NCBI GenBank assembly: GCA_963725885.1
Contig: CAVSAH010000008.1
Coordinates: 65,858-129,857 of the forward strand
From: an uncultured Chloroflexia bacterium
GTDB lineage: Bacteria; Chloroflexota; Limnocylindria; QHBO01
Reading direction: 5' to 3'
Length of the DNA stretch: 64,000 nucleotides
Position 1 is the stretch's first letter, and the number at the start of each line of letters is the position of its first letter. The notes below the pieces were generated by a model. The model was not told the origin of the DNA, did no database searches, and saw only the letters and a program-made list of their open reading frames with translations. Positions 1-64,000 of this stretch are shown here, one piece after another. The position numbers and the translations under genes were made by a program.

Positions 1-120
1 CAAACGCACCTACCGCGTCCTCCTCACCCGCGGCCTCAAGGGTTGCTACCTGTTGGTTGAGGACTCCTGGACTGCGGAGCAGTTTGGTCAGCGGTATACA
101 ACGCACCGAGCCGTTAATCC
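1..120 (+). CDS. 3' end of a DUF2075/SF1-helicase-like gene (partial; enters from the left edge)
   Basis: The frame starting at nt 2 reads KRTYRVLLTRGLKGCYLLVEDSWTAEQF. The YRVxLTRG..G motif is seen near the C-terminus of DUF2075/SF1 helicases. The true stop cannot be identified: the frame stays open to 403, but minus-strand coding is clearly better from ~114 upward. Confidence 0.3.
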
Positions 121-1366
121 TGACCTTCGCGTTCGAGCGATAGGCGGCGAGCTCGACCCACGATCCGAACGAACTCCGCATCCTAGGGTCCGCGAAGCGG
201 TAGATGCCATTAGCCTCGCGCCTCAAGATCGTCGAGTCGTCCGGGGACACAAGGCGCCCAAAGTGGTTGTTCATCTCTCCCTGGCTTATGTCCCGCCCGA
301 GCGCGCTGGACACCGCGTCCCTCAATTCTTTCGCGGAGAACTCGATAGCCGGGATCTCGGCCGCGGCTTCGACGATCACTCGATAGGTGTCGGTTTGAAA
401 TGAACGAACCGCCAGGCGTAAATGCGCCTTAGCGCCTCTTCCGCATCGTCCACTGCGAGAACCATCGCCGACTCAAGATCTGCCGGAGTGACCTCTTGTC
501 TCCCATCCGCTACGGCGAGTTCGGCGCTCTTTAGTCCGAGGAGCTGAGCGAAGTGGGGATAGCCTGCACTTAGCTCGACGATGGCGTCGACGACCCGCGC
601 GTCCAAAGCGACTGGAGCGCGCTTCGCATTCTTTTCAAGCAGCTCGCGAAGCTCGCCGACGGTCATCCGACTGAGTCGCACCTCACGGAGGCACCGCTGA
701 ACGGAAGGATGGCCGGCGAGGAGGTCGGACGATGAATCACCGATGCCCACGACGAGGACTTTGAAGTCGGCCGCCGAGTCGCTCAGCTGCTTGATGAACT
801 CCGCGATCAACCTCGGTCGAGAGTGCGCGACAAGGCATCGAATTCATCAAGCACGATCAGCCCCGGCGTGCCGCCGATGAGGCCGGCGACCGACGCGGGC
901 GTCAGTGAGAATCCAGGACGAGTACGAGTCTCTACTGTTCGACTAGCCGACCCTGCGTCCGCCTTCGCAATGCCAGCATTGAACCCGCCGCCGGCGCGTA
1001 GCTCGTGTTCCTCGGCTGACTCGACCTTCCCGAAGTCAATGCCTAGTTGCCTGAGCAAGGCTCGTGCGACGTCACCAAATGTCGTGGTGCTGTCACAGCG
1101 GATGACGACGACCTCGCCTTTGACCAGTTGCTGCAACAACACTTCTTTGGTGACATTGGCCAGCGAGCTCTTCCCTACCCCCCGATCACCGTATAGCAGG
1201 ACGTGCTGACCCGGAGTCAGGATGGCTGCGATGATTCTCGGACCTCAGACTGGCGTCCGAAGAACAGGCCGGCAGTCTGGATGGGTTGATGGGGCGTGAA
1301 GATGCGGCGGACCCCCGATCGGGCGATCCGCCGCTCGGCCTCCAGCCCAAAGATGTCTGACGACAC
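114..1366 (-). pseudogene. ORC/Cdc6-like (Arch_ATPase/AAA_22-type) P-loop ATPase with C-terminal winged helix, broken by 3-4 frame switches
   Basis: GTG at 1366 lies 10 nt after the nrdJ stop, behind a GAGGAG RBS. Pieces lie in three frames. (1) VSSDIFGLEAERR..LFFGRQSEV. (2) IIAAILTPGQHVLLYGDRGVGKSSLANV (Walker A) to GLIVLDEFD (Walker B; ORF 807-1142). (3) IAEFIKQLSD..AGYPHFAQLLG (ORF 376-810). (4) FQTDTYRVIVEAAAEI..NGIYRFADPRM (unlisted frame, ~420-170). Switches near ~1215, ~808, ~420 and ~170. GC is visibly lower than in the rest of the window. Confidence 0.6.
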
Positions 1367-1376
1367 TCCTCGTGAC

Positions 1377-61951: not shown

Positions 61952-63374
61952 GCCGCCGGACGTGGCGGTCGCCGGCGCGGGCGTCCCTGCTGTCCGGCGC
62001 GACCCGGCGCCGTCGAGCGTCGTCACACCAAGCGGGCCGCGCTTCGCGGCGCGGCGCAGACCGTACGCCGTGACGGACAGAACGACCCCGGACGATAGGG
62101 CCGCGACGAGGAATGCCGTCGGAGCGCCGCGGGCCTCCGCCACGGCGCCGGCGAAGAGTCCGCCGATCGGCGCCGATCCCGCGAAGACCGTCACGTACAG
62201 GCTCATGACACGGCCCCGCAGCTCGTCTGAGACGTTGGCCTGCACGGTGGCGTTGATCGTGTTGATCATCAGCATGCTGGCGTAGCCGGCGGCCAGGATC
62301 AGCGCCGCGGCGACGACGACCTCGCGAGTGAACCCGAGGCCAACGAGCAGCAGCGCGAAGACGGTCCCGCCGCCGAGCATGAGCGGGATGGCGCGCCGGC
62401 GGCGCATGTACGCCAGCGTCAGCGACCCGCCCAGCGCCCCGACACCGAGGGCCGCAAACAGCGCGCCGTAGCCCTCCGCGCCGAGATGCAGCGTGTCGCG
62501 GGCGAAGATCGGAAGGAGGATCTGGAAGTTGAATCCGAAGGCACCGATGCCGCCCAGCAGCACGCAGGCACCATCGCACGAGGGGGGTTCGAACCGCGTA
62601 CCCGATCCCCTCGCGCAGGCTGTCGAGCACCGGCGGATGTCGCTCGGGACGCGTCATGCGACGAATCTCGCGCGGGTTCATGCGTGCGAGCGCCACGAGG
62701 ACCGCCGCGTAGGTCACCGTGTTCAACGCCCAGGTTCACCGCCACGCCGGCCGTCGCCGAGCCGGTGCTGGCGGTCCCGGCGGCGATGATGACCCCGGCC
62801 AGCGCCGGCCCCACGACGCGGGCGGAGTTGAACGCCATCGAGTTCAGGGCGATCGCGTTGGCCAGCAGGCGGCGCGGAACGAGGTCTGAGGCGAGCGACT
62901 GGCGGATCGGCATGTCGACCGCGTTGACGAGGCCGAGCCACAGCGCCATCACCATGACCATCGGGATCTGGACGACGCCCGACGCGGTCAGGCCGAAGAG
63001 CACGAGGGCCTGGCCGGCCGCAGCGACCTGCGTGAGCATGAGGGCCCGACGCTTGTCGACGCGATCGGCGAAGGACGCCGCCGAACGGCGCGAGCAGCAT
63101 CGACGGGCCGAACTGGAGCACGGCGACGATGCCCGAGCTGGATCGGCGTGCCGCCCAGGGCGAGGACCAGCCAGGGGAGGCTGACCTGCTGCATCCAGGT
63201 GCCCACCAGGCTCACGACCTGGCCGCTCCAGTAGAGCCGATAGTTGCGCACGCCGAGCGACTCGAAGCCGCGCCGCAGCCCGCGCGCGGCGGCCGAGCCC
63301 GCGACGGGGCGCTCGCCGGGTGTCGGATCGGAAGCCTGCACGCTCACCTGCGCATCGGTGGGGTCGTTGCCCAT
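61937..63374 (-). pseudogene. MFS transporter (EntS/MFS_3-like) with about 4 frame switches
   Basis: MGNDPTD..VRNYRLYWSGQVVSLVGTWMQQVSLPWLVL. The sense then passes through ORFs 62723-63121, 62419-63039, 61704-62726 and 61937-62563 (..NVSDELRGRVMSLYVTVFAGSAPIGG..). Confidence 0.65.
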
Positions 63375-63398
63375 GCTAACCACCACCCGCGACCGGCG

Positions 63399-64000
63399 TC
63401 ACGCGGTGGCGGGTGCCCTTGAGGCTCGGCGTACGGCTGCGGCGCTCCCGGTCGGAGCCCGCACGGCGCGCAGCTGCCACGCGACCAGCACCAGCACGAC
63501 GCCGCCGAGGGCCGCGCCGACGCTCAGGGCGACCGGGGCGCCGAAGGCCTGCGCCAACGCTCCGGCGATGAGTCCGCCGATCGGCGCCGTTCCGGCGAAG
63601 ACGGTGACGTACAGCGACATCACCCGGCCACGCAGCGCGTCCGGGACGCTGTTCTGGATCGTGACGTTGATCGTGTTGACCATCAGCATCGACGTGAGCC
63701 CGATGCCCGACGACGAGCGCGACGCGCCAGCGGAGGCGTGCGCACGAACCCGAGCGCGAACGCGAGGATCAGGAAGGTCGCGCCGCCGCCGATGATGAGG
63801 CCCACGCATCGGTCGCCGATGCGCCATGAAGGCCAGCGCCAGCGAGCCGACGAGCGCGCCGAGGCCCATCGCGGCGTACATCGCGCCGTAGCCTCCGGAG
63901 TCCATGCCGAGCGCGTCGCGCGCGAAGAGCGGCAGCAGGGTCTGGAAGTTCATCGCCAGCGCGGCGGTCCCGCCCAGCAGGACGAGCGGCCACAGCACCG
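63399..64000 (-). CDS. C-terminal half of a further MFS_3-like transporter (partial at the right edge; at least 2 frame switches)
   Basis: ..NFQTLLPLFARDALG..SVPDALRGRVMSLYVTVFAGTAPIGGLIAG.. is a tandem paralogue of 61937-63374. It is interrupted by an Arg-rich out-of-frame stretch (~63700-63800). Confidence 0.55.
   Translation of the reverse strand, partial: VLWPLVLLGGTAALAMNFQTLLPLFARDALGMDSGGYGAMYAAMGLGALVGSLALAFMAHRRPMRGPHHRRRRDLPDPRVRARVRAHASAGASRSSSGIGLTSMLMVNTINVTIQNSVPDALRGRVMSLYVTVFAGTAPIGGLIAGALAQAFGAPVALSVGAALGGVVLVLVAWQLRAVRAPTGSAAAVRRASRAPATA

Follow-up and report, generated by a model that had tools for sequence, protein, structure and literature searches.

Background

In metagenome-assembled genomes obtained by nanopore sequencing, frameshift errors lower CheckM completeness, which rose from 85% to 94-95% after correction; the effect is worst at low coverage, and residual frameshift indels also raise pseudogene counts (PMC8103633). 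Consensus indels of long-read assemblies fragment gene calls (PMC9262707), while locally heterogeneous regions can resist polishing and PacBio continuous reads show a bias toward insertions (bioRxiv 10.1101/2021.08.23.457338). IDEEL-type tests serve to gauge such residual indels, and DIAMOND/MEGAN-LR or proovframe to correct them (PMC9262707; PMC8103633; bioRxiv 10.1101/2021.08.23.457338). Here we analyze single-base frame breaks in a stretch of 64,000 nucleotides (hereafter the window) from contig CAVSAH010000008.1 of an uncultured Chloroflexia bacterium (Limnocylindria, QHBO01; GCA_963725885.1), in which many conserved genes can be read only by changing frame.

Disrupted and shifted frames are also known from living cells. 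In true decay, as in Mycobacterium leprae or recent host-restricted pathogens, essential genes are spared, nonsense mutations and deletions are mixed in, and coding density and conservation are reduced. In programmed frameshifting, as in prfB, dnaX and insertion sequence (IS) elements, the sites are single, motif-bound and conserved among orthologues.

The window resembles the long-read artefact in that single-base indels split conserved genes throughout the genome, inflate pseudogenes and lower marker completeness, and in that they worsen with poor consensus support and are absent from relatives' assemblies that, by inference, are short-read. It differs from the classic nanopore form, which is homopolymer-tied and deletion-leaning (PMC9262707), since ~80-88% of the events here are insertions and no homopolymer link is seen. 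The profile is closer to that of raw PacBio continuous long reads (bioRxiv 10.1101/2021.08.23.457338) or to a polisher artefact, a resemblance that falls short of naming a platform. Like reductive genomes of the M. leprae type, the assembly carries many disrupted frames over the genome, but none of the features of true decay was seen; like programmed frameshifting, it requires a +1 or -1 shift to yield a conserved protein, but its roughly 1,570 sites occur in this one assembly only and share no motif. In our view, the frame breaks are in all likelihood consensus errors of a few-contig, long-read-type and under-polished metagenome assembly.

Frame breaks in the window

A first-pass annotation, made from the letters of the DNA, had estimated roughly 50-60 frame breaks. 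Our analysis located 60 by combining a frame tracker with frameshift-aware alignment, the ATPase at the left edge being left out because both methods are weak there. The tracker alone called 52 breaks, 40 of them of the +1 type. Alignment to orthologues, which had been proposed as a check, backed 43 private events, each with its sign: ~38 one-base insertions and 5 one-base deletions (~7:1), in line with the earlier impression that the usual lesion is one extra base. The other 17 of the 60 were called by the tracker only (30.4-31.9 kb, 54.8-56.4 kb; the gene is absent from the relatives there).

The genome comprises 2.52 Mb in 10 contigs, with a GC content of 70% and an estimated completeness of 75.8%, and the window corresponds to C8:65858-129857. 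The tracker is a 7-state codon-usage Viterbi model, with codon log-odds trained on 448 long open reading frames (ORFs) of the same genome that are GC-rich at the third codon position, and it calls a break at a same-strand frame switch where the upstream frame stays open well past the switch. Its performance drops in low-GC or repetitive genes, and it misses breaks soon before a stop, while its false-positive rate is bounded by the 6 calls in 213 kb obtained from eight assemblies with at least 40 contigs. The second, independent approach is a protein-to-DNA dynamic-programming aligner, frameshift-aware, which we wrote and tested; its references were ORFs from the syntenic regions of four genomes of the same genus (G009, G002, G003 and G010), restricted to frames scored as coding by the tracker. 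Events seen against all or most relatives spanning a site were attributed to the genome under study, and those seen against one relative only to that relative. The latter mostly looked like deletions in the window and so reflect extra bases that G003, G009 or G010 carry at other positions.

Parsing of blastn gaps against the relatives was dropped, as it yielded hundreds of compensating 1-nt gaps at 70-80% identity. Chaining of tblastn hits was adequate for strong cases and was replaced, being confounded by off-frame or antisense high-GC ORFs and by gene boundaries. Homology events at 13891, 15310, 26680, 38371, 48545 and 50177 were discarded as gene-boundary or mixed-sign artefacts; the one at 48545 was a gene-boundary artefact arising from stop-to-stop reference ORFs.

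More than 40 kb of coding sequence was aligned, and among its in-frame stops none was supported as a true nonsense mutation; the earlier remark that such mutations are almost lacking thus held on inspection. The candidates were off-frame stops beside a shift, true gene ends, or stops upstream of the real start. Moreover, the protein identity of the broken genes was as high as that of their unbroken neighbors (range 72-95%).

The breaks are also unevenly spread. They are dense at 1.8-4.4, 26-31.9, 43.8-44.9, 54.8-56.4 and 62.5-63.8 kb. Intervals previously described as free of breaks (~9.8-14.6, ~36.5-43.8 and ~45.4-54.7 kb) reappear as gaps at 8569-14609, 36483-43776 and 44910-54867, and the summed length of these three largest gaps has a P of about 1e-5 under uniform placement. 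The corresponding clean stretches, given without strand, are:

8570-14608 (6.0 kb): no private break; the events found there belong to G009 or G003
36484-43775 (7.3 kb): holds the 2.9-kb gene for a GSDH-PKD-SLH surface protein
44911-54866 (10.0 kb): holds a 2.5-kb gene

Genome-wide spread and essential genes

The tracker called 1,569 breaks in the whole genome (0.62/kb), 77% of them +1 and distributed over all ten contigs. Essential genes are included. The rpoB gene has one extra base at C7:51008 and is 94.7% identical to that of G009, being a single 1159-aa frame in both G002 and G009; rpoC is split into two frames at ~C7:53896 and is a single 1498-aa frame in G002. Within the window, the gene for the class II ribonucleotide reductase is broken eight times, and the assembly has no other PF02867 locus:

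1774-4640, minus strand: nrdJ, class II ribonucleotide reductase with TSCPD domain; 8 single-base insertions at 7 junctions
1867, 2267, 2811, 2879, 3134, 3912+3931 and 4404, minus strand: the nrdJ insertions, each seen against 2-4 of 3-4 relatives

Matches to PF02867, PF08471 and PF12637 lie in separate frames of nrdJ, and the protein is 93% identical to that of G009 at the amino acid level. The paired insertions originally placed at ~3915-3940 were recovered at 3912 and 3931. Since rpoB, rpoC and the sole nrdJ are all broken, the lesions are not those of a living cell. Coding density of the genome is 89%.

Dependence on assembly type

Eight assemblies of relatives with 40-560 contigs gave the 6 tracker calls in 213 kb mentioned above (0-0.07/kb), while fifteen assemblies of the genus with 30 contigs or fewer gave 0.05-1.27/kb, mostly +1. 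Among the latter, break density falls with rising estimated completeness (Spearman rho -0.69, p 0.005). The trait therefore tracks the assembly and not the lineage. As a side observation, G003, G008, G024, G037, G030 and G046 (L015-L019, L026-L028, L060-L078) carry the same insertion-biased breaks at 0.4-1.3/kb, with completeness of 56-91% despite near-full genome sizes.

Error signature and clustering

The extra base sits in otherwise matching sequence and usually outside runs, for example GACGG[C]GTCAC, GGAG[A]TCGAT and GGTCA[T]CGCTG (against two relatives). Most localized insertions are not part of a run of 3 or more bases, and for 878 tight +1 calls the longest run within 10 nt has the length distribution of random coding sites. 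The classic nanopore homopolymer subtype does not fit, which leaves the general artefact class unaffected. It had also been proposed that the breaks be checked for coincidence with a sequence or methylation motif. No such coincidence emerged genome-wide: no 3- to 5-mer exceeded 1.8-fold near the breaks, GATC was not enriched, and the 4- and 5-mers most enriched within 10 nt (1.4-1.8-fold) were generic GC-rich strings. With neither a motif nor a homopolymer link, a methylation-type motif, a slippery site and a four-base codon are ruled out.

The suspicion that clustering is stronger than a uniform error rate would give is borne out genome-wide as well as by the gaps in the window. Counts per 5-kb bin have a variance 3.6 times their mean, and 104 bins hold no break where 23 such bins were expected; the autocorrelation of breaks fades over about 5 kb. 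A single rate is far outperformed by a two-state Poisson model (log-likelihood gain 361), whose sparse state, at 0.24/kb, takes up 76% of the genome in runs averaging 13 kb and whose dense state, at 1.85/kb, takes up 24% in runs averaging 4 kb. The share of +1 breaks is 76% in dense and 79% in sparse neighborhoods, and this equal sign bias indicates one process behind both.

As proxies for consensus support we used contig ends, repeats and GC content. In the outermost 10 kb of contigs there are 1.06 breaks/kb vs. 0.57/kb more than 50 kb inside (1.9-fold, p 1e-7). Intragenomic repeats carry 1.03/kb vs. 0.61/kb in other sequence (1.7-fold, p 7e-6), and density rises from 0.50 to 0.91/kb across GC octiles (1.8-fold). 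Clustering with these three features is a property of the assembly and not of selection.

Origin of the breaks

The first-pass annotation had favored uncorrected long-read-type indels over long-term pseudogenisation, and our results point the same way: the breaks are genome-wide, strike essential genes, are biased toward insertions, come without nonsense mutations and leave protein identity intact. They are, in addition, absent from fragmented and present in other few-contig assemblies, and they follow contig ends, repeats and GC. What we observe directly is where the breaks lie, which sign they have, how widely the genome carries them and how they relate to the type and features of the assembly; from this we infer the sequencing technology and what caused each patch. 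Mostly one spurious extra base per break would have entered the consensus, at ~0.6/kb throughout the genome, and such errors would be concentrated in few-kb patches with poor consensus support. Locally poor support is the most likely origin of the patches, and it may result from low or uneven depth, contig ends, repeats, very GC-rich DNA, mis-mapped reads and possibly local strain mixtures. The real genes of the organism would then be intact, and a 2.5-Mb genome in 10 contigs would score 76% complete because the breaks split marker genes; this value is probably an underestimate for that reason.

Several points weigh against this explanation. The case is built on deposited assemblies, in which single breaks are not traced to underlying molecules, and the equation of few contigs with long reads and of many contigs with short reads is drawn from contig counts. 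The homopolymer signature of classic nanopore errors is absent. The 23S rRNA gene (G000:C7:24053-27128) shows no private indel in 3.1 kb against G009, G033 and G046, to which it is 96-98% identical, private indels being confined to the flanking spacers; however, such an absence is expected about half the time at the background rate. Finally, two loci of the window, the ATPase and a surface-protein gene considered below, are without a close orthologue for comparison.

Broken genes along the window

Pfam scans of single-frame pieces uphold the gene labels of the first reading, namely nrdJ with TSCPD, two cyclase/STAND NTPases, GGDEF-EAL, IolB, transaldolase-family, IolD, IolE, IolG, an AlkZ/YcaQ-like glycosylase, a luciferase-like monooxygenase, REC, a hybrid histidine kinase, three MFS transporters, the GSDH-PKD-SLH surface protein, acetyl-CoA synthetase, a SpaA-like surface-protein piece and a STAND/AAA ATPase fragment. 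The break counts given earlier for nrdJ, the hybrid kinase, the MFS genes at 44120-45441 and 61948-63375 and the surface protein were reproduced. One or two breaks each were found in the iolD, iolE and iolG genes, the transaldolase-family gene, the AlkZ/YcaQ-like gene, the LLM oxidoreductase, both cyclase/STAND genes, REC and acs, as had been reported. The strings quoted as examples were also found in place: GGCGTCGGACGTC at ~16280, GCGAACGGT at ~18634 and, in the hybrid kinase, GACATTCGGG at 30533-30542. Apart from nrdJ and the loci treated in the next two sections, the broken genes are:

4936-7394, minus strand: adenylate/guanylate cyclase-STAND NTPase; breaks near 5548 and 6293 (tracker and Pfam; a G003 paralogue backs 6293)
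7431-9823, minus strand: GGDEF-EAL gene; deletion at 8492 and insertion at 8569, both against 4/4 relatives, with Pfam support; the 77 nt between them are out of frame
14210-20132: transaldolase-family gene (minus strand) and iolD, iolE, iolG and AlkZ/YcaQ-like genes (plus strand); one-base insertions at 14609, 16280, 17191, 18634, 18789 and 19139 against 3/3 relatives (19139: 1/1), with Pfam support, and a tracker-only call at 20106
20765-21728, plus strand: luciferase-like monooxygenase; insertion at 21666 (alignment and Pfam)
23149-26730, minus strand: large AAA_16/STAND protein; double insertion at 26116 and 26132 against 2/2 relatives (G003 and G010), with further possible events at 26463-26680
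26700-31758, minus strand: response-regulator gene and hybrid histidine kinase; breaks at 27264, 28350, 28372, 28979, 30446, 30539 and 30732
31759-34879, minus strand: two unnamed genes without a Pfam match; breaks at 31784 and 31913 (tracker only) and 34714
35580-36864, plus strand: MFS transporter; insertion at 36483 against 3/3 relatives, with Pfam support
57290-59271, minus strand: acetyl-CoA synthetase (acs); one deleted base at 57917 against 3/3 relatives, 89% amino acid identity, with Pfam support
from 61948 (61948-63375), minus strand: MFS transporter; insertions at 62564, 62724, 63070 and 63134 against 3/3 relatives
next gene in the interval 61948-64000, minus strand: insertions at 63717 and 63806 (G003 and tracker)

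The hybrid histidine kinase (dCache-HAMP-GAF-PAS-HisKA-HATPase-REC) contains 6-7 breaks, and its Pfam domains are scattered over the frames. In this phosphorelay region, the breaks from 27264 to 28979 are backed by alignment to G010 and those from 30446 to 30732 by the tracker alone. Across 26100-34900, the apparent short, overlapping or abutting genes are frame-broken fragments (REC, hybrid kinase and upstream sensor part), and a reading of the locus as many translationally coupled genes needs to be rechecked with frame-aware models.

A separate observation concerns the SLH end of the GSDH-PKD-SLH protein (40720-41245), which has dozens of matches in G009, G003 and G002 at 70-75% DNA identity; judging from these matches, it is a putative wall-anchoring module that is widely reused in the genus.

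A dense patch and a falsely intact transporter gene

One patch spans parts of two adjacent genes:

43776-44910, minus strand: error-dense patch; 10 events in 1.1 kb across two genes, seen against 2-4 relatives
Suc_Fer-like gene, part within the patch: insertions at 43776, 43838 and 43944, deletion at 44086
44120-45441, MFS gene, 3' two-thirds within the patch: deletions at 44233 and 44461, insertions at 44547, 44662, 44753 and 44910

The first-pass annotation had considered that some loci, the MFS paralogues among them, may be genuinely decaying. However, the patch begins midway through one gene and stops midway through its neighbor, and such disregard for gene borders argues against decay specific to the MFS paralogue. 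When the frame is followed, identity of the MFS protein to its orthologue is 82% overall and 64-93% in every block, compared to 63% for a single frame; the suggestion of decay is thus not upheld. The same gene contains an apparently intact ORF of 428 aa (44152-45438, minus strand), in which the shifted blocks are only 12-50% identical. This ORF is a mosaic of in-frame and out-of-frame segments, with the frame regained by three successive +1 shifts, and gene callers would output it as a full-length but partly nonsensical MFS protein. As off-frame stops are rare at 70% GC, the integrity of an ORF is an unsafe guide.

Accessory loci

Two loci of the window have few or no counterparts among relatives:

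1-1300, minus strand: STAND/AAA NTPase fragment of low GC (62%), running off the window, with abutting open frames
54747-57253, minus strand: surface-protein gene with SpaA-like prealbumin fold; about 10 frame switches at 54867-56349, tracker only

For the ATPase, roughly 4-6 breaks were placed near 390, 826, 996, 1097, 1236 and 1313, at positions that are unreliable given an identity of 39-43% to G060, the sole homologue found among 120 genomes of the class. Weak Pfam pieces of nSTAND1 and AAA_22 lie in different frames. Against G060 the breaks look rich in deletions, unlike the genome-wide spectrum, in an alignment that is noisy. The fragment is carried by a low-GC island (1-1700, 62%), which was probably acquired horizontally. 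No other locus in the window is as densely broken as the surface-protein gene, which has many short segments separated by uncoded gaps and whose SpaA_4 domain is split between two frames at ~55524. A DNA-level comparison of the segment 53700-57300 with 40 other genomes of the genus gave no match beyond two short hits in G036.

Alternative explanations

Massive recent pseudogenisation throughout the lineage would place the breaks in the genome itself; they are physically in the record, and their clustering together with a completeness of 76% is superficially like reductive evolution. We nevertheless hold it to be very improbable, as the essential rpoB and rpoC and the only nrdJ are among the broken genes, nonsense codons are lacking, and protein identity is undiminished at a coding density of 89%. 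Bacterial mutation is typically deletion-biased, and the insertion bias of ~7:1 is the opposite; break density is furthermore tied to contig ends, and the same pattern recurs in other few-contig assemblies and in 0/8 of the fragmented ones of the clade. Biological recoding, in which programmed +1 frameshifting or four-base decoding would read through the extra bases, agrees with mostly +1 breaks flanked by conserved peptides on both sides, but it is scarcely credible when no motif is shared (enrichment of 1.4-1.8-fold at best), the extra base is missing from orthologues at every homology-backed site, deletions are present too and density follows contig ends and repeats. As for the errors themselves, they could stem from a systematic base-calling or consensus fault provoked by the DNA of this lineage, such as dense or unusual modification or an extreme-GC structure in certain regions, and not from random low-coverage noise. 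This idea arises because insertion-biased, homopolymer-independent and patchy errors are common to many contiguous assemblies of a high-GC genus; we consider it improbable, but if it were true the patches would mark DNA biology even though the extra bases are unreal.

We give more weight to a mixed situation, in which most breaks are artefacts and the ATPase (1-1300), the SpaA-like gene (54.7-57.3 kb) or both are genuine pseudogenes on top. Both loci are accessory, the surface protein being without a match in the 40 genomes and the one homologue of the ATPase being 39% identical; the surface-protein gene combines the top break density with uncoded gaps, and the ATPase breaks look deletion-rich against an insertion spectrum elsewhere. 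On the other hand, patches of equal density (1.85/kb) cover 24% of the genome, and decay is unnecessary to explain the accessory loci because such patches strike essential and conserved genes as well. The ATPase alignment at 43% identity falls in the noisy range of the aligner, and the tracker, trained on high-GC genes, is weak in low-GC or repetitive DNA. Neither locus has a demonstrated nonsense codon or large deletion. We regard genuine decay of one or both as unlikely but by no means negligible.

Implications

The finding holds no biological novelty and is a practical warning about data quality. A gene at 70% GC can pass as intact with a third of its protein out of frame, and gene calls, pseudogene counts, 'overlapping' or 'translationally coupled' pairs, domain architectures and completeness in this genome need frameshift-aware methods. 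The same caution extends to several other contiguous assemblies of this Limnocylindria genus (G003, G008, G024, G037 and others), and those with 30 contigs or fewer should not serve as clean references in comparative work.

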